Shown: positions 26,167 to 52,243 of the stretch, in pieces
Layout: each line of letters begins with the position of its first letter
Numbering within the stretch: the stretch's first letter is position 1
From: Amoebophrya sp. A120
Lineage: Eukaryota; Protista; Dinoflagellata
DNA length: 64,000 nucleotides
Direction: 5' to 3'
Assembly: GCA_905178155.1 (NCBI GenBank)
Contig: CAJINV010000003.1
Coordinates: forward strand, 11,629,074 to 11,693,073
Position numbers and translations under genes: made by a program
Notes under the pieces: model-generated
What the model saw: the letters and a program-made list of their open reading frames with translations, nothing else
Database searches by the model: none
Told to the model about the DNA's origin: nothing

Positions 26167-27180
26167 CTATCGCTTCTCCCTGCCGATACCCAGAAGCCCG
26201 GCGACCGCCAAGGGGTGTAGTGACAGGCCCATGACTATCAAATGCAAAAATGTCTGGGTCTGGAAGAATACATGTTTGTCATGCTTGTCTGGCATGACTC
26301 TTAAATCTGTCATGCACGTTACCCAAGAGCTCCATTTTTCTGCGATGCAGAAACGCAGTTTGTCATGCAGAATAGGCAACACCTAGGAGCTGAGAAGCTT
26401 GTCATGCTAAGCCAGCACTTGTGGCCTCATCTCATCATGAGACGCCACCCAGCATCACAAGTTTCCGGACCCAGACATTTTTGCATTTGATAATGACCCC
26501 GGAGTCGAACAGTATGTAACCGGACAAGTACGGTAGGAAGAAGCCGAGCGCGAAGATTCGTATCCCGTGCAAATGAAGTATCGCACTCGCACTAGTATTG
26601 GTAATTGCAATCACGCATGACAGATTGTACTATCTTTGTAGGATACTTACACAGCACTCAAAGTTTCGTTTTTCATCATGCTACGAAAATTTTCAACAAA
26701 ACTGCGATTTCTACTACTTAGTACGACACTTCTACTTCTTTGGTTGTGGTGCATAATTCTCCAGTACATGCAAAACCGCAGTTTGTCTGCGTCGTCCATG
26801 AGAACGCCCCACTCGCCCACCAGCGCGGACAAACAATCCACGCCCCCCACGATGAAAAAGAGAATCTGCTCCACCTTGGACTGCTCGTTTCCCGGTTTGA
26901 AGCCCGCCCCGGCGACGAGAAAAACGACTCCCCGCACGAGCGCTTGGACCATCAAAATATGCCCCCCGATCCGCATGGGAAGGAGCCCGAGGAACTTCGG
27001 CGCCCGTGGGGGAGGCACGACCTCTTCCGCTTGGTCGTGTGGGGATGGGTCGGGCGGCGGCCGAGGAGGTTGTGCGTCCTGTGCTTGTTGCATTCTTGTG
27101 TCCATCGTGGCCGCCGCACCTGGGCGTGGGCCCTCTGCGCCGGGGCTAGAATAATTACTTACTAGGCGCTTCCGCAGCAC
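26167..27180 (-). CDS. Membrane protein (unknown function), split by two introners
   Basis: ORF 26647-27180 joins via introner removal to ...CMYWRI|FALGFFLPYLSGYILFDSGV|MGLSLHPLAVAGLLG...; 3' end uncertain. Confidence 0.6.
26236..26492. mobile_element. Introner, family A
   Basis: TATCAAATGCAAAAATGTCTGGGTCTGGAA / TTCCGGACCCAGACATTTTTGCATTTGATA; DR ATGAC. Confidence 0.92.
26561..26755. mobile_element. Degenerate introner, family E
   Basis: TATCCCGTGCAAATGAAGTATCGCACT...GTGCATA; DR ATTCG/ATTCT; removal restores frame. Confidence 0.75.
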
Positions 27181-28854: not shown

Positions 28855-31800
28855 CTATCTTCTGTGCTCTTGTTGAAGATCAACACCACAGGAGCTAAAA
28901 ACCGTCGTAACAAAAATTCCGCATAGGGCAAAGGCGACACTACAAAGCAACATCACTCCGTTCATCAGCAGCAGACGCTTCTCATAAGGCGGCAGCCGCT
29001 CCCCTCCGTGCGCCTTGCAATCTAGGAGACTCTTGAACACGACCCGACGGTGTTCATGTTGTTGTTCTTCTGTTCTGGCTTCATCTAGCAGAGGTTTTCT
29101 AGTCTCAACACCCTCGTCACAGGCGCGTGTAAGCTCCTGCAGGTCGCCGGCGTAGTTCCTGCCGGCCTTTTCTTTTTGTTTTATTTTGCAGTTGTCCTGC
29201 TCAGATGAAAACGCTTCTGAAGAACGCACACAAGCTGCCTCCCTGTCCTTTATTGGATCCGTTCCGATTTGTTCCTCTTCACATTTGATGTTTGCTAGAG
29301 AAACTTCTCCACCACCTTCCCGCCGAGCATCCGCCAGAAACGGCCTCAATTCCTCGGCCAACACCGCCGGCCCAGGAAACCCGCACTCCCCCTCTAATTT
29401 CAGTTGCTCGTAGACTTCGACTACATTTGACTCATCCACGAAGTTGCCTGAGACTGCGATGGTGGGCTCTTCGTTCCACACCTCGTGTACCCAGCCGCTT
29501 GGCACAAAAATCGCTTCTCCAGGGTTTACGAAAGTTTCCCAAATCTCGATTTTGTTGTAGTCATTCTCTTTGTCTTCATGTGTTGCTGGGTCGTTCTCCA
29601 CTGCATTTGCAGTGCCGCCGTCGCCCTGCGTCGTCGTACTCTTTTCGCTGTCCAAGAACTGCACGTCCTTCCCGGAAATAAAATCCGCAGAGTCACATTG
29701 CAACGCGTCCGCGGGGATCCAGGGGGAGCTCAAGTCGTCAAGATAGAAAGGCTTCAACAATGGCAAACTATGAGAGTGCACAACTACTCCTCCCCAACAT
29801 TTGTCGTGCAAAATACCAAACCCTAGCGCTGCCATGTGGTACTGCTTGCATGACAGATTCCGGAAGCCCAAACAGTGCTATGCATCTTACGCGCATGAAC
29901 TTGTCATGCACAAGCTTCAACGATGTGCTTGTGCGGGTCGTGTTTCTATTGCTGTTAGTTCATGCAAGACAAATGAGGGGGAGGGGAGCAGTTGCAGTCG
30001 TGCACTGTCATACAAACTCTCCGGACTGCACAGCCGGTACTTTTTTCTCCCGCACCCGACGAACTGCCAGAAGTGCGTGTTGGAAAAGTCAACGTGCGGC
30101 CCCGCGCCCTTCTCCTCGTATCCTGAGTAAAAACGTACCCACACCAGAGTTGTAATGCAGATTTGCAAAGACAGGAAGACTTGTAATGCGCATCCCCATG
30201 AGAGCCATTTCCAATCGTCTTTTGGAATTTGTGATGCTGTGAACAGGATGAGCAGATGAATCTGCGATGCGGCTGCACTTGCTAACCTGCCCTACACTGC
30301 GGAGTGCAGCTTGTCATGCGTGACTCACAAAACTCCTAGGTTTGTGTTGCAAAATCCCCATCCTGACTCTGGTGTGGGGACCTTTTACTCAGGATACCTC
30401 GTGCCCGAAGTTCGCGAACAGGGTCGGAAACGCGGACCCGGACACCGGGAGTGCGTTGCTTTGCGCGACGGACAAAAAGTCGCGGTGGGGGAAGGGCGGG
30501 TAGGGTTGGAACGCCTCGGCGAATCGCCGCCCGAGCTTCGTGCGCCACAGTGAAAAATCGAAGACCAGGTCGTGGTTCTTGGAGGAAAGTGGATCTTGGT
30601 GGCCACCACGGGACGAGGAGGTGTCATTTACACTATTATTTCTCCCGAGGACGACAGAGTTCTTCGTCTCTGGTCCGGATGTTGTACTTGATGTAGGCCA
30701 AGAACAAGCGCTGGCCATCATCTCCGCAAAGGTTTTCTTCTCCCCGACATTGTCCTTCAAATGGGCCCAGAGGCACTCGGTTTCTTTCTCTTGTTCAACA
30801 CCCGTATCAGTCTCCCTCTCCGACCCCGAGGGGTTTCTACTTCTAGTTGAAGAGGTGATAATTCTTGTGTCGCACCTTCTTCGCGTCGGCAGCTTCAAGT
30901 CACCGAGAAAAGCGCTGAGATCTTCAAACGACCGGAGGAAGGGAGGGATAAGCTTCTTTTCAAAAGTACTGTTATAGTACTTTTCATCATTTCCTGCCGC
31001 CCTCGCCCCTGCTCCCGATGATCCACTTCCTGTGTACACAAACGGGGTCCTTCTCGTCGTGAAAGCTTCGTGTACGCAACTGACCCGCGGCACTGGGATG
31101 GAGAGTCTCTGGATAGTACGACAGCATGTGTTGGCGGATTCCTCTTCCACTTCCGGCTTCTTCCCTCTCGATGAAAATCGCAGAGAAATTCGTTCCTGCC
31201 GCTTTTCCTCGAATTCAAGATGCCGCCTGGCGATCTCTTTTGCGAACTTTAGTCCTGCGGCTTCGGGAGACTTGTATCGATGTGAAAAATTATTGTTCTC
31301 AGCACCATTTTTGGCACTCCTCTTTCGTTTTTCCAAAGCGTCTACTGAGAAAGAAAAGTTTGATCCAGCACATACATATAGAAAAGCCGAAGTCGTGGTG
31401 CGTGGTAGCACATTCGCACGCATGCAAACTTTTTGCAAGCTATGTTCAACACACGAATAAACACCGTAACCTTATTAGGTTTAGGTAAGCTTCCTGATGC
31501 CACATAAACAAATTTTCCATAGCGTACAAGTTCTTTTTCGCCGTCGGCAGCAACACTTGTCGCCTGCAAAAGCGCCTCCTCGGCGACTGCCAGCGCTTTC
31601 TCGGGGTGTCCAGCTAGGTCGAGCAAGTGAGCCACCGCGGCTTTATCCTGCTGAAGTACAATTGAAGCTGAACATGCTCCAGATGATACCATGTCGGTAC
31701 GACCTTTTTCGCCATGTTCCGGCACTCCAGCAGCAGAGACGTTGCTCCCACGAACTGCTACATGATCCAGTGGCAGGAGTTTTCGCAAGACTTTTTCCTT

Positions 31801-33452: not shown

Positions 33453-35339
33453 CTAGGAAAGGCGGAGCGAACGCAAAGGGACAGCCTCGCGACGTTCAAC
33501 TTCGAGGCCTTGGTGAGGACGTTCAATTTCGTAGGCCTTGAAGTCCAACTCTTCGATGTCAACTCTCAGAAGGCGAGGCGCCGACTCGACAAAGTCCACC
33601 AAAAAGCTCCACTTCCATCGCGAACGGTAGGAAATACGCGGAGAGAATTTGCAAAGGGGGGTATACCCCCACCGGAAGTCGTAGTCGACAGTCCAACTGA
33701 TTTTCTTCACCGCCGTACTTGTGCCATTCGAGGAATCTTCGTAGTAGATATCGTCCACACGCATCCCTTGAGGTCCAACCTTGATTGCGGCTTCTCTGTT
33801 TGCATCAGCCCTGTCCGACACGTCTGCTGCAAACAGAATAGGATCCTCTTCCTCGACATTGTCCGTGCCCAGGATCGCATCCCAATAAGTGTCGTTGTAA
33901 TTTCGCACAAGATATGGGACGAACTTACCCTCTGTCGACTGTCGAATGTTCTGGGGCAGCAACCTCTTGTCAGCCAGAGGCCCAGAATCTCTGCTCCATG
34001 TCCGAGACATGAGCAGCTTGCTCCATGTCCGAGACTCGTCACGAAACGGCAACTCTACGTGGCTGCGATCCCCACCTCGGGGGCGTAGGCCGGCAGCACT
34101 GACTCTCCCTTCGATGATGTCTCGCAGTATCGGGAAATGGAAAGATTTGACTAAGTCGCCAACTGCCTCCCACAACTTTCGAGCCTCTTCCTGGGGGGCG
34201 ATATCAATCCCAATCTGGATCGCCTCCTCCGGCGGCGGCAACTTATTGAACAGGGAGGCTCTATGATGCGGACCGAACCAAAACGACTTCAAAGAGACTG
34301 CTCCATCGGAATTATTGTCCCAACAGTCGGCGAGTTTCTGCTCGAAGGCGTTAAACTCGCGCAGGTCCTCTATTTCCTGGTCGTCACTTAAATTGAACCG
34401 GTCAACAGCCTCACCAACCCTGCTAGCAGCGCTAAGAGCGCGCCTTCCAACAGCCTCACCAAGAGTGAGAGCAGCGCTAGCAGCGCTTCCAGCAGCGCGC
34501 AAGAGAAGTCCATTCCTCTCCGAAACTCGACTTGCAGACGCCCTACCTGCTGCACTGTGGAGGTTACCACCCAGTTCCAAGTCGACGAATCCGTCCTCCC
34601 TGGAAGAAGACGGCTGGCGCACCGCAGCGGAGCCGCGCCCCGGCCCCCCCAGCCCCACACGAGCTCGAGCACGAGACCCAGACGAAGCCGGTAGCGGCAG
34701 TGAATCACCACCATGGCCGTCAGACGGCTGGCGGTGCACCGCAACCACGTGCGCGCGTCCCGCGGAATGCCTCCCCACACGAGGCCCAGATGAGACGCGT
34801 GTATGAACTGCAAAAGTATCGTACTCGTATAAATGCATTACAAATTTTCTCAGCATGAGAAATAAAATTTGTAATGCAGATTTACCTTAGCAAAAGGATT
34901 TGTAACGCATGATTGCAATACGAGTACGATACTTTTGCACAGGATAGTGTGACTTTTCCAACGCCGACCCGAAAAGCGACGAACCCAACAGGATATGGAT
35001 TGCAAATATGTCTGGGTCTGGAAACTTGTAATGCTAAAAGTGAATGATAGACGCACTGCAATACGCAGCTATGCATGTTGACAAATTTTTTGGCTTCCAT
35101 GGCTTACGTATTCCGCATGGCATGGTAAGCTGCGCTTTTGCATGACAGGTAATAAGGCCTTTTCGTGCCTATGCAACACAGATGCTCGAGTCATGCCAGA
35201 CAAGCATGACAAAATTGGATTCTTCCTGACCCAGACATTTTTGCATTTGATACAGGAACGACCACAACATCAAAACTCTGCCGAAGACCGCTCCTCCCAT
35301 TTTGCGGCTGGCAGTTTTCCGAAACTGAGGCGACGTCAT
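33453..35339 (-). CDS. Tandem-family putative secreted protein, copy 1 (490 aa)
   Basis: Exons 35258-35339, 34952-34993, 33453-34801 total 1473 nt in frame; hydrophobic N-terminus MGGAVFGRVLMLWSFLLGSSLFGSALEKS. Confidence 0.8.
34802..34946. mobile_element. Introner, family E (copies 1 and 4 only)
   Basis: TATGAACTGCAAAAGTATCGTACTCGTAT / ATACGAGTACGATACTTTTGCACAGGATA; DR GCGTG/GTGTG; site empty in copies 2, 3 and 5. Confidence 0.92.
34994..35252. mobile_element. Introner, family A (reverse orientation)
   Basis: TATGGATTGCAAATATGTCTGGGTC / GACCCAGACATTTTTGCATTTGATA; DR CAGGA. Confidence 0.92.
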
Positions 35340-37270
35340 TTTTATTTTAATTGCACACAAAAGACAATTGCGTGCTCGCTTCAATGATAAAGAGCGCGAA
35401 AACAAAATACTTATTTCTTTTTTACGTAAACTCAATGTTTTTTTTTGGACGTTTTGCTTTAAAGCAAACTCAACGATAGAGAGTGGGAAAATATTTCCTT
35501 GGACGTTTTTGCGTAAAAAGGCTTTTGCGCTTTTTGATTTTTTCAAAATAAATGGAGCTTGTGTTTTCTGATGCGAAGATTAGTTTTGAGCGAGCTTCTC
35601 TACTGTACTTTTTTGGACGAAGTAGCAAATTAATCTGTGGAGCCGTGACGTTTCAATTATTGTGATCGCCGACACGTCCGTGCTTTCTTTCTTTCCGTGC
35701 CTGGGCATGGCGTCAAAAGATCAAGGACCCAAAAGATCCGCTGTGTTTCCATTTTCATCATTTCTCTCTCCGGTTGATTCTGCGACGACTCTGACCCTAG
35801 AAAATCTGTTGTAACCTACAAAAATGCGCTGCGATCACTGATTTCGTCTAACCGAGTATTTATTTTCATTTTCATTTTCAGCATCGGTATTTATTGTATT
35901 CTAAATCGATTTTCCATTCCAATGAACAGGAGCCAGAGAGGAACGCCACTAAAACTCCCTCAAGTTGCACAAGTGGCTTGGTCCCTTTTTACACCCCATA
36001 GTATGCATCAAGGCCAATCATAGGCACTCCAGAGAGCAGAGAGGTCGTTGAGAGTCGTAGTTGGTTGCATTTCTAGAGCAATTTGAAATTCGATTTCTGG
36101 TGACTCATTAGTTTGGTACTACTCGTCACTGGTTCTTATACAAAATATCCGTGTCGATTCCGTCGTAGCAGTTCGGCAATTATCACCGCTGCGCGCTTTA
36201 TTCTCTCATTTCAATTTGCGGTGTTGACCTCACTACATATCACCTAGGCGCTCATACATTCTTTTTTTTTTTATTTTTTCACTTAATCCTGCAATTTGTT
36301 CCAAAATATAGAGTGGGTTCGCATTCTGTTTAGTCTCTCCTCTGTTCCTTGAAGAGTCTACATCAACATCACCACACACGCCTTTCGGTTGGTTTTCATT
36401 ATACACGGCTTTCAGTTTTACCATTCATCATACACTTGGAAAAGTTTCTGCTAGTACTGGTGCACGGTTTCTACAAACTACAACAACTACGCTTGGTGTA
36501 AAGATCAACCACAACTCTGCCTCTGTCTATCGATAAATTCTTTTTTTTTGGGGAAAAAAAAATTCCTCAAAAACATAGGGTGACGGTGAATGTTTGTGTT
36601 TCAAAAAATCAATTGTGCGCTCGCTTGCTTCTTCGGGCGAGCGAGTACCAGTTTACCTTGCTATCTATGTTCTTGAGTGTAAGCAGTTGACGACCAGTGT
36701 CTCAACCGGTCGCCATCGTGAACTGAAGAAACACTGCTAGTTTTAGCTGTGAACCAACAGTCACGGGGAGTTACCAGAGGGAAGGCCAGCCGGGGCTCGC
36801 AATCGTCCTTGGTTTCAGTATCAAAATACTCTTGACAATTGCAAGAATATTTTATTGTCCTTGTTTCAAGAAAAATCGCAATTGTCTCTGTTTCAAAAAT
36901 CAATTGTGTGCTCGCCTCTTCAGGCGAGCGCGTAACTGTTTGTCATACTAAGTAAGTATGTTCCTGTTTGTGAATAGCTGGCAACTAGTGTCGCAACAAG
37001 TCGCCACCGGAGCCTGACGAAACGCCGCCCGTTTTAGTAGTGAACGGCCAAGCTCGGGGAGTTGCCGGGAGAAGGACTGCCGAAGCTTTCCCTCAGCCCT
37101 GGCTTCAGACTGGAGCAAAACTACCTCCTCTTCCGTAATGCTCCCGTCAACCTCCGCACAACCACAAGGCCCAAAACAAGCCGCCTCTACCAGGTCCAAA
37201 ACAAGGTACAAAACAAGGTCCAAAACTGTTTCAAAAATCAAAATGCGAACCCGCATGCAGCACGTTCGCT

Positions 37271-39031
37271 CTAGAAAAAGCTGAGCGAACGCAAAGGGAC
37301 AGACCCAGCCCGGTGATGTTCAGCTTCCACACGTTGGAAAGGAACTTCGAAGACTTCGAAGTCCATCTCTTTGATGTCAACTCTCAGAAGGCGAGGCGCC
37401 GACTCGACAAAGTCCACCAAAAAGCTCCACTCCCATGTTGAGCGGCAAGAAATAGGCGGGAAGGTATTGTAATGATCCGCTTCGGAAATCGCATCGGTAT
37501 ACTTCCTTTGGAACTCGTAGTCGACAGTCCAACTGATTTTTTTCTTCATCGCCGTACTTGTGCCATTCGAGGAACCTTCGTGGACATCGTCCACACGCAT
37601 CCCTCGAGGTCCAGCGCCAACCTTGATTGCGGCTTCTATGTCGGTATCGGGCCTGTCGAGGATCGCCTTCCAATAGATATCGCTGTATGATCGCGCAAGA
37701 AATGAGACTCTCTTACCCTCTCTCGACTGTCGAATGTTCTGGGGCAGCAAGTCCTTTCTAGACAGAGGCCCACGAGTTCTGGACCATATATCACATAACG
37801 AGAACGGAACGTCGTCCCGCAGAAAGCCCTGTTCGTCACGAAACCACCACGGAGGCATTTCGATTGTGCGAACCCCATTGCGGGGGCAACGGCCGGCTTG
37901 TGCGTGCCCAAAATCGGGTTTTTCCTCGATGATGCGTTGCAGTGTCGGGAAATGGAAAGATTTAACTAAGTCGCCAACTGCCTTCCATAACTTTCGAGCC
38001 TCTTCCTGGAGAATGAATCGCCTGTCCAGCGGCGCGATATCAAAAATCCCGATCTGGATCGCCTCGTCCGGCGGCGGCAACCTGTTGAACAGGGGCTGTT
38101 GTTTAAGACCTTGTAGTTGCCTCATTTGCGGACCGAACCAAAACGACTTCAAAGAGACTGCACCATCGGAATTATTGTCCCAACAGTCGGCGAGTTTCTG
38201 CTCGAAGGCGTTAAACACGCGCTCGTCCTCAAGTTCGCGTTTTGCCTTTGCATTCCACCGTTCTGCATTTGCATTCCACCGGTCAACAGCCTCACCAAAC
38301 CTGCTAGCAGCGCTAGCAACGCTTTCAGCAGCGCGCGAGAGAAGTCCATTCGTCTCCGAAACTGGACGTGCAGACGCCCTACCTGCTGCACTGTGGTGGT
38401 TAATACCTGTTTCCAAGTCGACGAATTCGTCCTCCCTGGAGGGAGACGGCTGGCGCACCGCAACCACGCGCACGGCTCCCGCGGAGCCGCGCCCCGGCCC
38501 CCCCAGCCCCACACGAGCTCGAGACCCAGACGAAGCCGGTAGCGGCAGTGAATCACCACCATGGCCGTCAGACGGCTGGTGGTGCACCGCAACCACGCGC
38601 GCGGGTCCCGCGGAATGCCTCCCCACACGAGGCCCAGAAGCAGGGAAGCGTGACTTTTCCAACGCCGACCCGAAAAGCGACGAACCCAACAGGATATCAA
38701 ATGCAAATGTGTCTGGGTCTGGAAAGTTGCAAGGTTTGTCATGCTAGGCTAGCAAGACTCTTAAGCCTGTCATGCACGTTGCCCGAAAGCCCTATTTTTC
38801 TGTGATGCAGAAAGGCAGTTTGTCATGTAGTATAGGCAACACTTAGAAGCTCAGAAACTTGTCATGCTGAGCCATCATTGGTGGCATCCAAGTGCTACGC
38901 CACTCAGCATTACAAGTTTCCAGACCCAGACATATTTGCATTTGATACAGGAACGACCACAACAAAACGCCACCGAAGACCGCTCCTCCCATTTTGCGGC
39001 TGGCTGTTTTCCGAAACTGCGGCGACGTCAT
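37271..39031 (-). CDS. Tandem-family putative secreted protein, copy 2 (500 aa)
   Basis: Exons 38953-39031 and 37271-38694 total 1503 nt in frame. Confidence 0.8.
38695..38947. mobile_element. Introner, family A (forward orientation, same site as 34994)
   Basis: TATCAAATGCAAATGTGTCTGGGTCTGGAA / TTCCAGACCCAGACATATTTGCATTTGATA; DR CAGGA. Confidence 0.92.
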
Positions 39032-39982
39032 TTTTATCTATTAATTGCACACAAAAGAAAAAAACTCAAACTCAACGATAAAGAGCGCGAAAAATATAAA
39101 TACTTGTTTCTTTTGGACGTTTTTGCGTAAAAAGGCTTCTCCTTTTGCTCTTTGGTTTTTTCAAAAATGGAGCTTGTGTTGTCTGATGCGAAGATTAGTT
39201 TTGAGCGAGCTTCTCTACTGTACCTTTTTGGACGAAGTAGCAAATTAATCTGTGGAGACGTGACGTTTCATTCATTGCGATCGCCGACACGTCCGCGCCT
39301 TCTTTCTTTCTTTCCGTGCCTGGGCATGGTGTCAAAAGATCAAGGCCCTAAAAGATCCGCTGTGTTTCCATTTTCATCATTTCTCTCTCCGGTAGATCCT
39401 GCGACGACTCTGAACCCAAAAATGTGCAGTGATCATTGATTTCGTCCAACGGAGTACAAGTTTTTATTATGTTTTTATTTTCAGCATCGATAGTCATATT
39501 TATAAATCGACTTTCCATTCCAATGAACAGGAGCCACAGAGGAACGCCACTACAGCTTCCTCAAGTTGCACAAGTGGCTTGGTCCCTTTTTACACCCCAT
39601 AGTATGCATCAAGGCCAATCATACGCACTCCAGAGAGCAGAGAGGTCGTTGAGAGTCGTAGTTGGTTGCATTTCTAGAGCAATTTGAAATTCGATTTCTG
39701 GTGACTCATTAGTTTGGTACTACTCGTCACTGTTTCCTATACAAAATATCCGTGTCGATTCCGTCGTAGCAGTTCGGCAATTATCACCGCTCCACGCTTT
39801 ATTCTTTCATTTCAATTTGCGATGTGCAAAATTTGCATTTCGACTTGCATTTGTTGATTGAGTCTTAATTATTTCTCTTGTGAGTTACAGTGTGGTCCTG
39901 AAGCCAATGTCCACAAGCAGCTTCAGAAGCACTACGTGTAATTGGTGTAAAATTTTTCGATGCTATTGATTCTTCATATCCT

Positions 39983-41030
39983 CTACTTCACAGCAGGGCC
40001 AGGAGTATAAATAAACAAGTACAAAAAAAAGCTCGCAGTGTGCTGTTCCAAGCAAACCTCTTTTTCCCGTGTGCTATTGTGGTCGGTCTGTCGTCCCGTA
40101 TAACGTGAGCAGGTTCGACACGTCCTTTTGCAAGATTCCGAATTTCGTCTTCTATCGCCGGGGAAAATCTTCAACATCGCTTTCGTATACAGAACATCTT
40201 TTTCCAAGTTCTTCTATCAAGATCACCCTTCCCCCTCCCAATACGCAGCGGGGCATGATCTTGATCCGCCCCGGTATCCTAACACTGTCAGTGATCTTAC
40301 GGTTATGCATACAAAACAGAATGAATGCCAGAGCGACGCACAAGCGATGTGAAAAAGACATTTTCTCTAGCCGTATCTTCTGTTGTGTGTCCAAGAAGCC
40401 CAGCACCATTTTCTGCTCCTGCGCAAACTCGCCAAACTCTCCGCGGACACCCTCTAGCGAGGTCCACAGGTCCCGAATCTAGTTTGTTGGTTATTCTTAA
40501 ACAGCACTTCGTACATATCATGCGCACAAAACAACCAGGAATTGCGCCCATAGGCGTACCTGTGGTCCCAACGGCGCATGTGAACAAAAAGACCTTGGTC
40601 TGCATGCAAGAAAAGAATCACGAAATAATAAATTCCATTTATACTTGTTTTTTATTCGCGTTGGTTGACTGTTCGGTCTCCGCCGCCTTTTGGTTTACAA
40701 CTTGCTGTGGCTCCATGGCGTCGAGCAAAACTTTCACGTCGCCGGCCACTTCTTTTATCCTGGTCGAAAGGTAGGTTTCCAGCTGTTTGTAGTCCTGCCG
40801 GCGCAAGTCCCCCTCCTCTTCCAGCCTGCTCTGCCAGGACCGCTCCGCCCGCTCTATCCAGTCGCCCTTTTCGTTCAGCTCCGACTGGAAAAAGTCCACC
40901 TGCTTCTTCATCTGGTCGGAAGATGTGAAGTTGTCAGAGACAAATTTCTGCATGTAGTCCTGTTGGTCCTTCATCTTGCGCTCCCTGTTTTATTTTGAGA
41001 AAATTTTGAATTTCCTCAAAGTACTTGTTC
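39983..41030 (-). pseudogene. Duplicated 3' fragment of the coiled-coil gene
   Basis: Near-identical to 52244-53291. Identity ends at GTACTTGTTC (41030), inside an intron, and the upstream exons are absent. Confidence 0.75.
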
Positions 41031-42340
41031 ACCTCTGGCCACTTGAAAACTGCCGGTCGTTTTGGATAAGACATGTCAAAAAGATCGCTAGATTAGAACG
41101 TTCGTGACCTCACTACATACTACGGAGACTTTAGTTTGCTAGAACAAGAATCAGCAAGCACATCCATCAAGCTGCAGTTTGCTACAAATCCGATTGTTCC
41201 AGTGAACACGAGCCAAACAAGAAACACGCCACTCATGACGCACATGACCTCACTACAGGTCACCTAATCGCACATACATTCTCTTTTTTTCATTTTTTCA
41301 ATTAATCCTACAATTTGTTCCAAAATATGGAGTGTGTTTGCATTCTGTTTAGTCTCTCCTCTGTTTCTTGAAGAGTCTACATCAACATCAGCACACACAC
41401 CTTTCAGTTGTTTTTCATTATACACGGCTTTCAGTTTTACCATTCATCATACACTTGGTAAAGTTTCTGCTAGTACTGGTGCACAGTTTCTACAAAAGAG
41501 GCGCGAAAGCGGAACTACAACAACTACGTTTAATGTGAAGATCGCCCACAACTTTGTCTCTCTCCACCGATAAAGTCTTTTTTTGGGTAAAAAAAAATTC
41601 CTCCAAAACATACATAGGGTGACGGTGAATGTTTGTGTTTCAAAAAAAAAAATTTGCGCTCGCTTGCTTCTTCGGGCGAGCGAGAACAACCAGGTTACCT
41701 TACATCTATGTTCCTGAGTGTAAGTAGTTGACGACCAGTGTCTCAACCGGTCGCCACCGTGAACTGAAGAAACACTGCTAGTTTTAGCTATGAACCAACA
41801 GTCACGGGGAGTTACCAGAGGGAAAGCAAGCCGGGGCTTGCAATCGTCCCTGGTTTCACTATCAAAATACTCTTGACACTTGCAAGAATATTTTGATACT
41901 GAAACCAGGGACAATTGTCCCTGTTTCAAGAAAAATCGCAATTGTCTCTGTTTCAAAAATCAGTTGTGTGCTCTCCTCTTCAGGCGAGCGCGTAACTGTT
42001 TGTCATACTAAGTATGTTCCTGTTTGTGAATAGCTGGCAACTAGTGTCGCAACCAGTCGCCACCAGAGCCTGACGAAACACCGCCCGTTTTAGTAGTGAA
42101 CGGCCAAGCTCGGGGAGTTGCCGGGGAGAAGGACTGCCGAAGCCCTTCCCTCAGCCCTGGCTTCAGACTGAAGCAAAACTACCTCCTCTTCCGTAATGCT
42201 CCCGTCAACCTCCGCACAACCACAAGGTCCAAAACAAGCCGCCTCTACACGGTCCAAAACAAGGTCCAAAACAAGGTTCAAAACAAAGTTCAAAACTGTT
42301 TCAAAAGGCCAAATACGAACCCGCCTGCAGCACGGTCGCT

Positions 42341-44280
42341 CTAGAAAAGGCGGAGCGAACGCAAAGGGACAGGTCCAGCGTCGCGACGTTCAACTTCGAG
42401 GCCTTGGTGAGGACGTTCAATTTCGTAGGCCTTGAAGTCCAACTCTTCGATGTCAACTCTCAGAAGGCGAGGCGCCGACTCGACAAAGTCCACAAAAAAG
42501 CTCCACTTCCATTGCGAAAAGTAGGAAATAGGCGGAGAGATCTGGCAATGGGTTGTATACCCCCACCGGAAGTCGTAGTCGACAGTCCAACTGATTTTCT
42601 TCACCGCCGTACTTGTGCCATTCGAGGAATCTTCGTAGTAGATATCGTCCACACGCATCCCTTGAGGTCCAACCTTGATTGCGGCTTCTCTGTTTGCATC
42701 AGCCCTGTCCGACACGTCTGCTGCAAACAGAATAGGATCCTCTTCTTTGTCTTTGTCTTTGTCTAGGATCGCATCCCAATAAGTGTCGTTGTAATTTCGC
42801 TCAAGATATGGGACGAACTTACCCTCTGTCGACTGTCGAATGTTCTGGGGCAGCAACCTCTTGTCAGCCAGAGGCCCAGAATCTCTGCTCCATGTCCGAG
42901 ACATGAGCAGCTTGCTCCATGTCCGAGACTCGTCACGAAACGGCAACTCTACGTGGCTGCGATCCCCACCTCGGGGGCGTAGGCCGGCAGCACTGGCTTT
43001 CCCTTCGATGATGTCTCGCAGTCTCGGGAAATGGAAAGATTTGACTAAGTCGCCAACTGCCTCCCACAACTTTCGAACCTCTTCCTGGGGGGCGATATAA
43101 ATCCCAATCTGGATCGCCTCCTCCGGCGGCGGCAACTTGTTGAACAGGGAGGCTCTATTATGCGGACCGAACCAAAACGACTTCAAAGAGACTGCACCAT
43201 CGGAATTATTGTCCCAACAGTCGGCGAGTTTCTGCTCGAAGTCGTTAAACTCGCGCAGGTCCTCTATTTCCTGGTCGTCACTTAAATTGAACCGGTCAAC
43301 AGCCTCACCAACCCTGCTAGCAGCGCTAACAGCGCGCCTTCCAACAGCCTTACCAAGAGTGAGAGCAGCGCTAGCAGCGCTTCCAGCAGCGCGCGAGAGA
43401 AGTCCATTCCTCTCCGAAACTCGACTTGCAGACGCCCTATCTGCTGCATTGTGGTTACTACCCAGTTCCAAGTCGACGAATCCGTCCCCGGGGGAAGACG
43501 GCTGGCGCACCGCAACCAAGCGCGCGTGTCCCGCGGAGCGCCCCCCCACACGACGAGGCCCAGGAGATGAGTATCAAAATGAAAAATCCCCCCTCCCCAT
43601 ACCAAAACGGAGATTTGTGTAGCATGATTTGCTACCACAAATCATGTTGTCATGCTAGAAAGCAAAAGATGCGGACTGTAGTGCTGGCTGGCGTGGGAAA
43701 ACCTCGCATCTTCAGCATCACAGGAGGCCACTGTAAGTGGGAAACAGCATGACAAATCGCCTGCAATTTAGGCCGCAACTGCGTCTCTTGGCCTTCTAGC
43801 AATACAAGTCGACTTGTGTACGCAAATCCAGCATCACAAATGTCCTTTTCAATATGGGGAGGGAAGTTTTTTCCTCACGATAATGAGACGCGTGACTTTT
43901 CCAACGCCGACCCGAAAAGCGACGAGCCCAACAGGATATGGATTGCAAACATGTCTGGGTCTGGACTCTTGTAATGCTAAAAGTGAATGATAGACGCACT
44001 GCAATACGCAGCTATACATGACAAATTTTTTGGCTTCCATGGCTTACGTATTCCGCATGGCAAGCTGCGCTTTTGCATGACAGGTAATAGGGCCTTTTCG
44101 TGCCTGTGCAACACAGATGCTCGAGTCATGCTCATGCCAGACAAGCATGACAAACTTGCACTCTTCCTGACCCAGACATTTTTGCATTTGATACAGGAAC
44201 GACCACAACATCAAAACTCCGCCGAAGACCGCTCCTCCCATTTTGCGGCTGGCAGTTTTCCGAAACTGAGGCGACGTCAT
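42341..44280 (-). CDS. Tandem-family putative secreted protein, copy 3 (453 aa)
   Basis: Exons 44199-44280, 43888-43936, 42341-43571 total 1362 nt in frame. Confidence 0.8.
43572..43882. mobile_element. Introner, family C (copy 3 only)
   Basis: TATCAAAATGAAAAATCCCCCTCCCCATA / TATGGGGAGGGAAGTTTTTTCCTCACGATA; DR ATGAG; a single ATGAG at the empty site in copies 1 and 4. Confidence 0.92.
43937..44193. mobile_element. Introner, family A (reverse orientation)
   Basis: Homologue of 34994-35252; DR CAGGA. Confidence 0.92.
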
Positions 44281-46215
44281 TTTTATTTTAATTGCACACA
44301 AAAGACAATTGCGTGCTCGCTTCAATGATAAAGAGCGCGAAAACAAAATACTTATTTCTTTTTTACGTAAACTCAATGTTTTTTTTTGGACGTTTTGCTT
44401 TAAAGCAAACTCAACGATAGAGAGTGGGAAAATATTTCTTTGGACGTTTTTGCGTAAAAAGGCTTTTGCGCTTTTTGATTTTTTCAAAATAAATGGAGCT
44501 TGTGTTTTCTGATGCGAAGATTAGTTTTGAGCGAGCTTCTCTACTGTACTTTTTTGGACGAAGTAGCAAATTAATCTGTGGAGCCGTGACGTTTCAATTA
44601 TTGTGATCGCCGACACGTCCGTGCTTTCTTTCTTTCTTTCCGTGCCTGGGCATGGCGTCAAAAGATCAAGGACCCAAAAGATCCGCTGTGTTTCCATTTT
44701 CATCATTTCTCTCTCCGGTTGATTCTGCGACGACTCTGACCCTAGAAAATCTGTTGTAACCTACAAAAATGCGCTGCGATCACTGATTTCGTCTAACCGA
44801 GTATTTATTTTCATTTTCATTTTCAGCATCGGTATTTATTGTATTCTAAATCGATTTTCCATTCCAATGAACAGGAGCCAGAGAGGAACGCCACTAAAAC
44901 TCCCTCAAGTTGCACAAGTGGCTTGGTCCCTTTTTACACCCCATAGTATGCATCAAGGCCAATCATAGGCACTCCAGAGAGCAGAGAGGTCGTTGAGAGT
45001 CGTAGTTGGTTGCATTTCTAGAGCAATTTGAAATTCGATTTCTGGTGACTCATTAGTTTGGTACTACTCGTCACTGGTTCCTATACAAAATATCCGTGTC
45101 GATTCCGTCGTAGCAGTTCGGCAATTATCACCGCTGCACGCTTTATTCTTTCATTTCAATTTGCGGTGTTGACCTCACTACATATCACCTAGGCGCTCAT
45201 ACATTCTTTTTTTTTTTATTTTTTCACTTAATCCTGCAATTTGTTCCAAAATATAGAGTGGGTTCGCATTCTGTTTAGTCTCTCCTCTGTTCCTTGAAGA
45301 GTCTACATCAACATCACCACACACGCCTTTCGGTTGGTTTTCATTATACACGGCTTTCAGTTTTACCATTCATCATACACTTGGAAAAGTTTCTGCTAGT
45401 ACTGGTGCACGGTTTCTACAAACTACAACAACTACGCTTGGTGTAAAGATCAACCACAACTCTGCCTCTGTCTATCGATAAATTCTTTTTTTTTGGGGAA
45501 AAAAAAATTCCTCAAAAACATAGGGTGACGGTGAATGTTTGTGTTTCAAAAAATCAATTGTGCGCTCGCTTGCTTCTTCGGGCGAGCGAGTACCAGTTTA
45601 CCTTGCTATCTATGTTCTTGAGTGTAAGCAGTTGACGACCAGTGTCTCAACCGGTCGCCATCGTGAACTGAAGAAACACTGCTAGTTTTAGCTGTGAACC
45701 AACAGTCACGGGGAGTTACCAGAGGGAAGGCCAGCCGGGGCTCGCAATCGTCCTTGGTTTCAGTATCAAAATACTCTTGACAATTGCAAGAATATTTTAT
45801 TGTCCTTGTTTCAAGAAAAATCGCAATTGTCTCTGTTTCAAAAATCAATTGTGTGCTCGCCTCTTCAGGCGAGCGCGTAACTGTTTGTCATACTAAGTAA
45901 GTATGTTCCTGTTTGTGAATAGCTGGCAACTAGTGTCGCAACAAGTCGCCACCGGAGCCTGACGAAACGCCGCCCGTTTTAGTAGTGAACGGCCAAGCTC
46001 GGGGAGTTGCCGGGAGAAGGACTGCCGAAGCTTTCCCTCAGCCCTGGCTTCAGACTGGAGCAAAACTACCTCCTCTTCCGTAATGCTCCCGTCAACCTCC
46101 GCACAACCACAAGGCCCAAAACAAGCCGCCTCTACCAGGTCCAAAACAAGGTACAAAACAAGGTCCAAAACTGTTTCAAAAATCAAAATGCGAACCCGCA
46201 TGCAGCACGTTCGCT

Positions 46216-48144
46216 CTAGAAAAAGCTGAGCGAACGCAAAGGGACAGACCCAGCCCGGTGATGTTCAGCTTCCACACGTTGGAAAGGAACTTCGAAGACT
46301 TCGAAGTCCATCTCTTTGATGTCAACTCTCAGAAGGCGAGGCGCCGACTCGACAAAGTCCACCAAAAAGCTCCACTCCCATGTTGAGCGGCAAGAAATAG
46401 GCGGGAAGGTATTGTAATGATCCGCTTCGGAAATCGCATCGGTATACTTCCTTTGGAACTCGTAGTCGACAGTCCAACTGATTTTTTTCTTCATCGCCGT
46501 ACTTGTGCCATTCGAGGAACCTTCGTGGACATCGTCCACACGCATCCCTCGAGGTCCAGCGCCAACCTTGATTGCGGCTTCTATGTCGGTATCGGGCCTG
46601 TCGAGGATCGCCTTCCAATAGATATCGCTGTATGATCGCGCAAGAAATGAGACTCTCTTACCCTCTCTCGACTGTCGAATGTTCTGGGGCAGCAAGTCCT
46701 TTCTAGACAGAGGCCCACGAGTTCTGGACCATATATCACATAACGAGAACGGAACGTCGTCCCGCAGAAAGCCCTGTTCGTCACGAAACCACCACGGAGG
46801 CATTTCGATTGTGCGAACCCCATTGCGGGGGCAACGGCCGGCTTGTGCGTGCCCAAAATCGGGTTTTTCCTCGATGATGCGTTGCAGTGTCGGGAAATGG
46901 AAAGATTTAACTAAGTCGCCAACTGCCTTCCATAACTTTCGAGCCTCTTCCTGGAGAATGAATCGCCTGTCCAGCGGCGCGATATCAAAAATCCCGATCT
47001 GGATCGCCTCGTCCGGCGGCGGCAACCTGTTGAACAGGGGCTGTTGTTTAAGACCTTGTAGTTGCCTCATATGCGGACCGAACCAAAACGACTTCAAAGA
47101 GACTGCTCCATCGGAATTATTGTCCCAACAGTCGGCGAGTTTCTGCTCGAAGGCGTTAAACTCGCGCAGGTCCTCTATTTCCTGGTCGTCACTTAAATTG
47201 AACCGGTCAACAGCCTCACCAACCCTGCTAGCAGCGCTAAGAGCGCGCCTTCCAACAGCCTCACCAAGAGTGAGAGCAGCGCTAGCAGCGCTTCCAGCAG
47301 CGCGCAAGAGAAGTCCATTCCTCTCCGAAACTCGACTTGCAGACGCCCTACCTGCTGCACTGTGGAGGTTACCACCCAGTTCCAAGTCGACGAATCCGTC
47401 CTCCCTGGAAGAAGACGGCTGGCGCACCGCAGCGGAGCCGCGCCCCGGCCCCCCCAGCCCCACACGAGCTCGAGCACGAGACCCAGACGAAGCCGGTAGC
47501 GGCAGTGAATCACCACCATGGCCGTCAGACGGCTGGCGGTGCACCGCAACCACGTGCGCGCGTCCCGCGGAATGCCTCCCCACACGAGGCCCAGATGAGA
47601 CGCGTGTATGAACTGCAAAAGTATCGTACTCGTATAAATGCATTACAAATTTTCTCAGCATGAGAAATAAAATTTGTAATGCAGATTTACCTTAGCAAAA
47701 GGATTTGTAACGCATGATTGCAATACGAGTACGATACTTTTGCACAGGATAGTGTGACTTTTCCAACGCCGACCCGAAAAGCGACGAACCCAACAGGATA
47801 TGGATTGCAAATATGTCTGGGTCTGGAAACTTGTAATGCTAAAAGTGAATGATAGACGCACTGCAATACGCAGCTATGCATGTTGACAAATTTTTTGGCT
47901 TCCATGGCTTACGTATTCCGCATGGCATGGTAAGCTGCGCTTTTGCATGACAGGTAATAAGGCCTTTTCGTGCCTATGCAACACAGATGCTCGAGTCATG
48001 CCAGACAAGCATGACAAAATTGGATTCTTCCTGACCCAGACATTTTTGCATTTGATACAGGAACGACCACAACATCAAAACTCTGCCGAAGACCGCTCCT
48101 CCCATTTTGCGGCTGGCAGTTTTCCGAAACTGAGGCGACGTCAT
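46216..48144 (-). CDS. Tandem-family putative secreted protein, copy 4 (504 aa; chimera of copy 1 N-terminus and copy 2 C-terminus)
   Basis: Exons 48063-48144, 47757-47798, 46216-47606 total 1515 nt; the switch occurs at FWFGPH|MRQLQ. Confidence 0.8.
47607..47751. mobile_element. Introner, family E
   Basis: Duplicate of 34802-34946. Confidence 0.92.
47799..48057. mobile_element. Introner, family A
   Basis: Duplicate of 34994-35252; DR CAGGA. Confidence 0.92.
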
Positions 48145-49724
48145 TTTTATTTTAATTGCACACAAAAGACAATTGCGTGCTCGCTTCAATGATAAAGAGC
48201 GCGAAAACAAAATACTTATTTCTTTTTTACGTAAACTCAATGTTTTTTTTTGGACGTTTTGCTTTAAAGCAAACTCAACGATAGAGAGTGGGAAAATATT
48301 TCCTTGGACGTTTTTGCGTAAAAAGGCTTTTGCGCTTTTTGATTTTTTCAAAATAAATGGAGCTTGTGTTTTCTGATGCGAAGATTAGTTTTGAGCGAGC
48401 TTCTCTACTGTACTTTTTTGGACGAAGTAGCAAATTAATCTGTGGAGCCGTGACGTTTCAATTATTGTGATCGCCGACACGTCCGTGCTTTCTTTCTTTC
48501 CGTGCCTGGGCATGGCGTCAAAAGATCAAGGACCCAAAAGATCCGCTGTGTTTCCATTTTCATCATTTCTCTCTCCGGTTGATTCTGCGACGACTCTGAC
48601 CCTAGAAAATCTGTTGTAACCTACAAAAATGCGCTGCGATCACTGATTTCGTCTAACCGAGTATTTATTTTCATTTTCATTTTCAGCATCGGTATTTATT
48701 GTATTCTAAATCGATTTTCCATTCCAATGAACAGGAGCCAGAGAGGAACGCCACTAAAACTCCCTCAAGTTGCACAAGTGGCTTGGTCCCTTTTTACACC
48801 CCATAGTATGCATCAAGGCCAATCATAGGCACTCCAGAGAGCAGAGAGGTCGTTGAGAGTCGTAGTTGGTTGCATTTCTAGAGCAATTTGAAATTCGATT
48901 TCTGGTGACTCATTAGTTTGGTACTACTCGTCACTGGTTCTTATACAAAATATCCGTGTCGATTCCGTCGTAGCAGTTCGGCAATTATCACCGCTGCGCG
49001 CTTTATTCTCTCATTTCAATTTGCGGTGTTGACCTCACTACATATCACCTAGGCGCTCATACATTCTTTTTTTTTTTATTTTTTCACTTAATCCTGCAAT
49101 TTGTTCCAAAATATAGAGTGGGTTCGCATTCTGTTTAGTCTCTCCTCTGTTCCTTGAAGAGTCTACATCAACATCACCACACACGCCTTTCGGTTGGTTT
49201 TCATTATACACGGCTTTCAGTTTTACCATTCATCATACACTTGGAAAAGTTTCTGCTAGTACTGGTGCACGGTTTCTACAAACTACAACAACTACGCTTA
49301 GTGTAAAGATCGACCACAACTCTGCCTCTGTCTATCGATAAAGTCTTTTTTTTGGGGGAAAAAAAAATTCCTCAAAAACATAGGGTGACGGTGAATGTTT
49401 GTGTTTCAAAAAATCAATTGTGCGCTCGCTTGCTTCTTCGGGCGAGCGAGTACCAGTTTACCTTGCTATCTATGTATGTTCCTGGGTGTAAGTAGTTGAC
49501 GGCCAGTGTCTCAACCGGTCGCCACCGTGAGCTGCAGAAACACTGCCCGTTTTAGCTATGAACCAACAGTCACGGTGAGTTACCAGAGGTAAAGGCAGCC
49601 GGGGCTCGCAATCGTTCCTGGTTTCAGTATCAAAATACTATCGCAATTGTCCCTGTTTCAAGAAACCTCGCAATTGTCCCTGTTTCAAAAATCCAAATAC
49701 GAACCCGCATGCAGCACGTTCGCT

Positions 49725-51292
49725 CTAGAAAAGGCTGAGCGAACGCAGAGGGACAAGCCCAGCGCAGTGATGTTCAACCTCCAGATCTTGGAGAGGACTT
49801 TGACGCTCAATTTCGAAGAGTTCGAAGTCCAGCTCTTTGATGTCAACTCTCAGAAGCCGAGGCGCCGACTCGACAACATCCACCAAAAAGCTCCACTCCC
49901 ATGTTGAGCGGCAGGAAATATTGTAATCATCCGTCCTGTGAGGGGGAGACTCGTAGTCGACAGTCCAACTGATTCGCTTCCTCGCCGTACTTGTGCCATT
50001 CGAGGAATCTTCGTTGACATCGTCCACAAGCATCCCTCCAGGTCCAACGCCAATCTTGACTGCGGCTTCTCTGTCTGTATCGGGCCTGTCCTCGAGGATC
50101 GCATACCATTTGATATCGTTGTATGATCGCGCACGATAGTAAACTCTCGTACCCTCTCTCGACTGTCGAATGTTCTGGGGCAGCAACTGCTTTTCAGCCA
50201 GAGGCCCACGAGTTCTGATCCATGTATCAGACGAGAGCGGCAGCAGTCGGCCACGTTCGCCACGATACCTCCTCTCTACTTCGCTTCTGCGAACCCCATC
50301 TCGGGGGCGTCGGCCGGCAAAACTGAGTCTCCCCTCCACGGTGCTTTGCAATCTCCGGAAATTGAAAGATTTAACTAAGTCGCCAACTGCCTTCCACAAC
50401 TTTACAGCCTCTTCCTGGGGGGCGATATCAATCCCAATCTGGATCGCCTCCTCCGGCGGCGGCAACTTGTTGAACAGGGAGGCTCTATTATGCGGACCGA
50501 ACCAAAACGACTTCAAAGAGACTGCACCATCGGAATTATTGTCCCAACAGTCGGCGAGTTTCTGCTCGAAATCGTTAAACGCGTCCTCGTCCTCTCTTTC
50601 CTGATGAGCAAAATCATATGGATAAACCCGTTCAACAGCCTCACCAAACCTGCTAGCAGCGCTAGCAACGCTTTCAGCAGCGCGCGAGAGAAGTCCACTC
50701 GTCTCCGAAACTGGACTTGCAGACGCCCTACCTGCTGCACTGTGGTTCTGGTTACCTAGTTCCAGGTCGACTTCATGTGATTCGTCCCCGGGGGAAGCCA
50801 GTGGCCGCAGTGAAGTACCACCAGGGCCGTCAGACGGCTGGCGCACCGCAACCATGTGCACGGAATGCCTCCCCACACTACGAGGCCCAGAAGATGAAGA
50901 GAAGCGTCGTGACTTCTCCAACGCCGACCCGAAATGCGACGAACCCAACAGGATATGGATTGCAAATATGTCTGGGTCTGGAAACTTGTAATGCTGAAAG
51001 TGAAAGAATGATAGACGCACTGCAATACGCAGCTATGCATGACAATTTTTTTGGCTTCCATGGCTTACGTATTCCGCATGGAAAACTGCGTTTTTGCATG
51101 ACAGGTAAGAGGGCCTTTTCGTGCCTATGCAACACAGATGCTCGAGTCATGCCAGACGACCATGACAAACTTGCATTCTTCCAGACCCAGACATATTTGC
51201 ATTTGATACAGGAACGACCACAACAAAACGCCACCGAAGACCGCTCCTCCCATTTTGCGGCTGGCTGTTTTCCGAAACTGCGGCGACGTCAT
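49725..51292 (-). CDS. Tandem-family putative secreted protein, copy 5 (435 aa)
   Basis: Exons 51214-51292 and 49725-50953 total 1308 nt in frame. Confidence 0.8.
50954..51208. mobile_element. Introner, family A (reverse orientation)
   Basis: TATGGATTGCAAATATGTCTGGGTCTGGAA / TTCCAGACCCAGACATATTTGCATTTGATA; DR CAGGA. Confidence 0.92.
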
Positions 51293-52243
51293 TTTTATCT
51301 ATTAATTGCACACAAAAGAAAAAAACTCAAACTCAACGATAAAGAGCGCGAAAAATATAAATACTTGTTTCTTTTGGACGTTTTTGCGTAAAAAGGCTTC
51401 TCCTTTTGCTCTTTGGTTTTTTCAAAAATGGAGCTTGTGTTGTCTGATGCGAAGATTAGTTTTGAGCGAGCTTCTCTACTGTACCTTTTTGGACGAAGTA
51501 GCAAATTAATCTGTGGAGACGTGACGTTTCATTCATTGCGATCGCCGACACGTCCGCGCCTTCTTTCTTTCTTTCCGTGCCTGGGCATGGTGTCAAAAGA
51601 TCAAGGCCCTAAAAGATCCGCTGTGTTTCCATTTTCATCATTTCTCTCTCCGGTAGATCCTGCGACGACTCTGAACCCAAAAATGTGCAGTGATCATTGA
51701 TTTCGTCCAACGGAGTACAAGTTTTTATTATGTTTTTATTTTCAGCATCGATAGTCATATTTATAAATCGACTTTCCATTCCAATGAACAGGAGCCAGAG
51801 AGGAACGCCACTAAAACTCCCTCAAGTTGCACAAGTGGCTTGGTCCCTTTTTACACCCCATAGTATGCATCAAGGCCAATCATACGCACTCCAGAGAGCA
51901 GAGAGGTCGTTGAGAGTCGTAGTTGGTTGCATTTCTAGAGCAATTTGAAATTCGATTTCTGGTGACTCATTAGTTTGGTACTACTCGTCACTGGTTCCTA
52001 TACAAAATATCCGTGTCGATTCCGTCGTAGCAGTTCGGCAATTATCACCGCTTCACGCTTTATTCTTTCATTTCAATTTGCGATGTGCAAAATTTGCATT
52101 TCGACTTGCATTTGTTGATTGAGTCTTAATTATTTCTCTTGTGAGTTACAGTGTGGTCCTGAAGCCAATGTCCACAAGCAGCTTCAGAAGCACTACGTGT
52201 AATTGGTGTAAAATTTTTCGATGCTATTGATTCTTCATATCCT

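Follow-up and report, generated by a model that had tools for sequence, protein, structure and literature searches.

The 64,000-nucleotide stretch of Amoebophrya sp. A120 DNA analysed here (contig CAJINV010000003.1; called the window, with its first letter as position 1) carries five tandem paralogous genes on the minus strand, numbered copies 1 to 5. Each of them is interrupted by an introner of one family, which we call family A, at the same CAGGA site, and in copy 2 this introner belongs to another subfamily and lies in the opposite orientation to the other four. Two subfamilies at one intron position is a real, well-supported case. The explanation that we prefer, at a probability of about 0.62, is that whole elements were independently inserted into homologous copies of one preferred site in opposite orientations. 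This figure includes precise excision followed by re-insertion, which would look the same. The features on which the argument depends are the following.

34994..35252, unstranded: family-A introner of copy 1, copy-1-type subfamily, left outer end TATGGATT
38695..38947, unstranded: family-A introner of copy 2, 26236-type subfamily, inverted relative to its paralogues, both outer ends TATCAAAT
43937..44193, unstranded: family-A introner of copy 3, copy-1 type
47799..48057, unstranded: family-A introner of copy 4, identical to the copy 1 element
50954..51208, unstranded: family-A introner of copy 5, copy-1 type, 5.2% different from copy 1
26236..26492, unstranded: family-A introner in an unrelated gene, of the copy 2 subfamily, not the donor of copy 2
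38690..38694, plus strand: left 5-bp target duplication CAGGA of copy 2, present in the exact DNA-like contig 38668-38721
38948..38952, plus strand: right 5-bp target duplication CAGGA of copy 2
38962..38967, plus strand: family-A target half-site at copy 2, where C 38963 is the 11th and A 38965 the 13th base past the duplication
37271..39031, minus strand: coding sequence of copy 2 in two exons, encoding a protein of no known family

An earlier sequence-only reading of the window had placed a family-A element at this site in all five paralogues and described all five open reading frames as intact. Both statements hold: a TAT...ATA element of 253-259 nt lies between two CAGGA copies in every gene, and removal of the element together with one CAGGA restores the same frame in five out of five. 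An in-frame stop lies inside the copy 2 element. The five inserts belong to the A120 introner elements, having inverted repeats at both ends with TAT, seven nucleotides and AAA, a direct repeat at the boundary within the 3-5-nt range (the 5-bp CAGGA, in five of five copies), and family members at unrelated loci. They also share the features of MITEs (miniature transposable elements with inverted repeats), i.e. terminal inverted repeats (TIRs, about 31 bp in copy 2), a duplication of constant length, small size, no coding capacity and high copy number.

For comparison, a TIR scan of metagenome contigs gave at least 132 outside loci; those listed all come from JACKZZ01, a second assembly which may not represent the strain of the window. 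From these loci 116 elements were extracted, and the 107 in which at least four of the five duplication bases matched were kept. The TIR pattern had 0 matches in viral contigs.

The interior of copy 2 aligns to those of the other four copies only as a reverse complement, at 64-67% identity, while the TIR-trimmed interiors of copies 1, 3, 4 and 5 are 89-100% alike. On the same strand it is 80% identical to the interior of the element at 26236 (82.6% over the full length with blastn), and the three motifs that the sequence-only reading had named as shared were found in both copy 2 and 26236-26492. A tree of the 13 window elements, proposed in that reading as a check, pairs copy 2 with 26236 (support 99/97) and not with 34994. 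A common origin of the five paralogous elements, the outcome expected of a simple inversion, was rejected by the approximately unbiased (AU) test, with p-AU 0.0039 for 13 rows and 4.7e-68 for 43 rows. Thus the claim of an inverted and strongly diverged copy 2, nearer to 26236 than to its paralogues, was borne out. The special tie to 26236 was not: two outside loci (L003, 82%; L025, 81%) are, among the matches listed, as close to copy 2 as 26236 is (80%), and 26236 has relatives of 91-92% among the outside loci listed. The 43-row tree, limited to rows of at least 66% to a reference, places copy 2 as the sister of a group of 11 members, 26236 among them.

The copy-1 type has free relatives as well, namely L058 and L090. 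L058 stands at an unrelated site, is 92-93% identical in the interior to the copy-1 type, has the same two outer ends and is separated by a branch of about zero; since a free relative has the same outer ends, the copy-1 type arrived whole. With free relatives on each side, two mobile subfamilies therefore occupy one site, and in both trees the elements at this site are polyphyletic, as parallel insertion predicts. The five copies are not five independent lineages, as the copy 4 element is that of copy 1 and the array is a mosaic.

The outer left end also separates copy 2 from its paralogues. It reads TATCAAAT in copy 2, as confirmed in a DNA-like contig, and, in all four others, TATGGATT, a variant which unrelated loci carry as well. 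Insertion of a whole element is favoured here because replacement of the interior primed by the TIRs should keep the outer bases of the recipient. Such retention, the mark of replacement of the P-element type, was not found at the left end, and the right end is uninformative.

More generally, bases 4-7 of the TIR show few variants, ranging from TATCAAAT to TATGGATT with intermediates, and are weakly tied to the interior phylogeny; the outer-end variants suggest heteroduplex repair between paired ends. Among pairs of elements in opposite orientations, 12 had straight and 11 swapped ends, against 19 and 6 for pairs in the same orientation, the pairs not being independent. By a noisier strand classifier, which miscalled copies 1, 2, 5 and 26236, the donor-side end was nearer to the consensus than the acceptor-side end (TATCAAATGC in 47 vs 21 of 80) and T at base 10 was less frequent at the donor side (6 vs 21, outside loci).

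A one-sided target motif was found beside family-A elements. At 86 of 104 outside sites a C is the 11th and an A the 13th base past the 5-bp duplication, compared with 3-19 of 104 at the other 17 offsets and a background of 11.6%. The motif has the form R-C-R-A, with the C as the 11th base beyond the duplication, and in only one of the 104 sites was the half-site present on both sides, the other side being read as reverse complement. There is no preference around the duplication itself (model positions -6 to +11, 0.04 bits). A symmetric two-sided target model fitted more poorly than the one-sided model (1.37 vs 2.56 bits). DDE transposases usually prefer palindromic targets near the cut. The side of the motif was independent of the orientation of the element (50 vs 35) and it lay upstream or downstream in the gene in 21 vs 33 cases; as the side ignores both orientation and gene direction, the motif is a DNA feature and not an RNA signal. 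In copies 1 and 4 the A has been lost through an indel, yet the copy-1/4 junction is seen in the RNA-like run X5.

Using a model trained on the outside loci, all 10 scored window sites other than those of copies 1 and 3 gave out-of-sample scores of +1.1 to +5.5 bits, two of the 10 being copies 2 and 5 and hence one site; copies 1 and 3 scored +0.3 bits. The half-site of copy 5 is the same as that of copy 2, and a 3-nt indel alters it in copies 1, 3 and 4. The copy 2/5 site scored +4.3 bits, ranking 18 of 1504 in the gene, and took 1.2% of the modelled insertion weight of the gene vs 0.07% under uniform insertion. The weight becomes 16-18% if insertion is limited to about 105 nt around the site, within which all three known insertion sites of these paralogues cluster. 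Elements of other families in the window mostly scored negative under the family-A model (8 of the 9 listed).

Families B, D and G gave hints of a motif of their own, 10-14 bases out, i.e. GAT in 7 of 16 (B), TTC in 4 of 8 (D) and CCA in 4 of 6 (G); these are small samples and the best of many picks, from outside loci L002-L132 and the window (e.g. 57224-57373, 30119-30396 and 60392-60965). The idea that the target of each family mirrors bases 9-13 of its own TIR did not hold across families.

Comparison of the array units gives a relative dating. On its left, unit 2 equals unit 4; on its right it equals unit 5, starting within the right TIR, with the first difference at 39537. Between these lies a segment specific to copy 2.

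38196..38917, unstranded: copy-2-only segment of about 750 bp, comprising the start of exon 2 and the element interior, boundaries approximate

The tracts flanking this segment are nearly identical to copy 4 on the left and copy 5 on the right, and both appear to stop at heterology, as conversion tracts would. The three old paralogue lineages are about 10% apart at 4-fold sites and 7-9.5% in most comparisons of non-coding flanks. Copies 1 and 5 differ at 13 of 251 positions in the elements (5.2%) and at 52 of 547 in the upstream flanks (9.5%; Fisher p 0.037). This suggests an unoccupied site at the time the lineages diverged, with the copy-1 type spreading by conversion afterwards; as the shared element seems younger than the paralogue lineages that carry it, the history requires neither loss nor replacement.

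Whichever way the element faces, it is probably spliced out at one and the same junction. Of the 104 outside loci, 70 could be confidently oriented relative to genes, giving 38:32, with a strand classifier that was correct for 11 of 12 window sites and for 72 of 72 held-out positions at a margin of at least 4, these positions being samples from window genes that overlap each other. Within the window, the 11 independent insertions of family A are oriented 7 one way and 4 the other, and all restore minus-strand frames; copy 2 has the orientation of the 7, in coding frames. The host strand in the window is backed by Pfam hits for three host genes. Elements that are 94% identical can face opposite ways, and the terminal stem folds in both orientations (hairpin z -7.5 for copy 2 on the transcribed strand, -5.7 for copy 5). 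From the sequence, no register of the duplication gives GT-AG.

The precise copy-1/4 junction is contained in a 508-nt contig of X5, and for copies 1, 3 and 4 an annotated protein follows the join obtained by removing the element plus one CAGGA. A second RNA-like run, X3, contains the precise junction in a 57-nt contig common to copies 1, 2 and 4, and an exact copy-2-specific contig (38609-38677, depth 9.4) leads into the junction contigs through 30-nt overlaps. X3 has no contig across the exon/element boundary of copy 2, and X3-X5 have none over the copy-specific interior; these absences were not counted as evidence. The prediction that both orientations splice at one junction is thus supported directly for the copy-1/4 orientation, by X5 and the annotated proteins, with copy 2 reached by overlaps only. 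Likewise, the proposal that removal is independent of orientation agrees with the 38:32 and 7:4 ratios and with the RNA-like junction, the splicing of copy 2 itself being supported but not proven.

Several results weigh against independent insertion or the evidence given for it. Outer ends are labile: the 43-row tree shows 10 and 13 changes in them, and in some sister elements the ends are swapped, which weakens the argument from the left end; the right TIR of copy 2 equals that of copy 5 over 30 nt, a result which conversion would produce too. Ends do undergo conversion, and the left-end argument is not decisive. The 104 motif sites come from one assembly, are among the matches listed and were chosen for a near-consensus TIR. 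The 1.2% chance of hitting the exact site is small unless the 5-prime clustering, based on three sites only, is real. Copies 1 and 3 differ by 0.3% upstream and by 3.6% in the element, so that the clock is patchy, and conversion distorts it both ways. Neither an empty allele nor an orthologous locus was found among 202 pattern matches (protein search of metagenome contigs). Regarding splicing, the RNA label of X3 and X5 is a guess, and bases of copy 2 never occur in one contig with the junction, the diagnostic bases spanning 32 nt and the contigs being apparently 31-mer-built. The X3 and X4 contigs carry copy-1 alleles at three nearby positions. For copy 2, fragments are annotated and no annotated full-length protein was found.

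The alternative that survives best, which we nevertheless regard as unlikely, is TIR-primed replacement, in which a resident copy-1-type element would have been broken and the break repaired from an ectopic 26236-type element in inverted orientation, with the shared 25-30-bp TIRs guiding the repair and the outer left end converted then or later. Such replacement keeps the same duplication without a second hit. It agrees with the flanks of copy 2, of which the left (47 nt) equals copies 1 and 4 and the right, together with the TIR, equals copy 5, all of these copies carrying the copy-1 type, and with the partial uncoupling of outer ends and interiors across the family. Moreover, TIR homology supports gap repair and replacement of P elements in the portions of PMC3887531 that we draw on. 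However, the outer left 7 bases of copy 2 are unlike those of the paralogues and call for an extra event, the three copy-1-type lineages have all retained TATGGATT, and end swaps did not clearly track gene direction. The copy 5 tract ending at the TIR would fit equally a later conversion stopping at heterology. The sequence-only reading had offered conversion of the interior and re-insertion at the same site side by side; of this pair, re-insertion or independent insertion fits better, and interior conversion is disfavoured by the left end, the target motif and the dating.

It is improbable that the copy 2 element is real but sits in a poorly spliced or silent copy, in which case it would say little about independence of orientation. 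The junction is unphased to copy 2, which is annotated only as fragments, and copy 2 is a recent mosaic in which an intact frame need not reflect selection. Against this, the copy-2-specific exon sequence in X3 overlaps into the junction contig, and 7 of 11 window insertions, like about half of the 70 outside loci, face the same way as copy 2.

An assembly chimera, with the copy 2 element patched in from another locus, is more improbable still. The array does contain long identical tracts, and the X1 contigs do not span the whole interior. However, an exact 54-nt contig of the DNA-like run X1 (38668-38721), at single-copy depth, joins the exon to copy-2-specific TIR bases, and another exact contig covers 38481-38679; because of the former, the left exon/element junction of copy 2 is real and not an assembly artefact. 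The summed contig depth in X1 reaches 1.5-2 x 10^5 in the interior core vs 25-27 in the exon, which is not a copy number, and a hole in the X1 contigs at 38781-38792 was not counted as evidence. A simple inversion between the TIRs followed by divergence would account for the same site, the same family and the symmetric ends, but can practically be dismissed given the identities of 64-67% vs 89-100%, the other subfamily and the AU tests against one origin.

Independent insertion could have proceeded as follows. The mobilising machinery would read the motif and cut with a 5-nt stagger 10-15 bp away, and the symmetric element would be joined either way round. The gene would already have been split into diverged paralogues with an empty site, after which a copy-1-type element would have entered one lineage and reached another paralogue by gene conversion, and a 26236-type element would have entered the lineage surviving as the middle segment of copy 2. 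Removal would rely on the paired ends and the duplication and not on the interior, which is in part observed.

A more specific version is tentative and in our view rather doubtful: family-specific targeting proteins might read a short asymmetric motif on one side and cut the strands 10 and 15 bp from it, leaving a 5-nt stagger (offset cutting), with a hairpin-ended element joined in either direction. Target codes would then be particular to each family, with CRA in family A and, from the hints above, GAT, TTY and CCA in three others. One would expect re-colonisation of the same site, exchange of subfamilies and flips at a fixed intron position to happen routinely and predictably, and the motif could help to find the missing mobiliser of A120.

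Three further elements lie near the shared site, so that elements of three families are inserted no more than 54 bp apart in these paralogues.

34802..34946, unstranded: family-B introner of copy 1, 37 bp from the family-A site
47607..47751, unstranded: family-B introner of copy 4, the family being missing from copies 2, 3 and 5
43572..43882, unstranded: family-C introner of copy 3, 7 bp from the family-B site

The only homologues of the host protein found by protein search were Amoebophrya sp. A120 proteins, and Pfam gave no significant family. Its N-terminus in copy 2 is hydrophobic and signal-peptide-like as judged by eye. Between the old paralogue lineages (33453-51300) amino-acid divergence is 27-35%, with 8-12% only at 4-fold sites; taken with the N-terminus, this pattern resembles that of a protein which is secreted or exposed at the surface and evolves under diversifying selection. 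The array (32381-53295) forms two blocks, units 1-2 and units 3-5, with chimaeric units and kilobase tracts that are near-completely identical, and a fragment of the neighbouring gene is duplicated within it (about 40000-41100 and 52200-53290).

Elsewhere in the window, a gene at 10400-11830, whose motifs we take to be PARP-like, has two family-A elements in opposite orientations; Pfam on its single frames gave no PARP match. In the duplication of the element at 10466-10761, 2 of 5 bases are mismatched. A tandem array at 12581-15456 comprises about 25 or more units of 99-103 bp, and its left flank (11890-12308) matches part of the outside locus L013 with 96% identity. The family-D element at 60392-60965 is 574 nt long, about twice the usual 279 nt; its right part shows 85% complementarity with the element at 30119, and it is possibly nested or composite.

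Introns found at the same place in two genes, even if family and duplication agree, are not necessarily of common descent, and counts of intron gains have to allow for this. The site also serves as a natural control, which indicates that splicing of these non-GT-AG introns likely draws no information from the interior or its direction. With about 30,000 introners in A120, a sharp one-sided motif which keeps a fixed distance from the duplication is a property by which the machinery that moves them can be tested.

The comparisons below refer to the portions of each source that were available to us. The A120 introner elements of Farhat et al. 2021 (PMC7789003) have inverted repeats beginning with TAT, seven variable bases and AAA, are about 250 nt long, have short direct repeats at their boundaries and are removed without GT-AG; the repeat structure, direct repeats, size and, as seen at the copy-1/4 junction, mode of removal are the same here. 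That paper found no transposase and left mobilisation open. Unlike the present work, its text as available to us has no target-site motif, no analysis of introner orientation and no same-site case. Our literature search likewise gave no Amoebophrya target motif and no same-site case of opposite orientations, the supplements of PMC7789003 and PMC12130899 being outside its scope.

Several classes of introner-like elements in Polarella glacialis form introns either way, as here (bioRxiv 10.1101/2020.10.14.339549); there, GT, GC or GA splice sites come from the duplication or the element end and an orientation bias exists, whereas here there is no GT-AG register and no bias was detected. For Stowaway MITEs in the beta-amylase gene of Triticeae (PMC1925063), the elements at one site are polyphyletic and nearer to those at other loci, as in our case; that site is intronic and shows excision footprints, while ours lies in an exon, with the element itself forming the intron, and it is paralogues that are compared. 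In P-element replacement (PMC3887531) an element is swapped at the same site through end homology and is expected to retain the recipient ends, whereas the left end of copy 2 is not of the recipient type; the P-element case is a rival mechanism and not a family assignment. Independent gains at the same or neighbouring positions have been described for fungal introner-like elements (PMC4457414) and for Micromonas introner elements and Daphnia (PMC4540971) and ascribed to hot spots, with no sequence cause of the hot spot stated in the text covered, whereas a motif was measured here. Parallel insertion and two-way introners are already known and the flip itself has precedent; the new part is the target motif.

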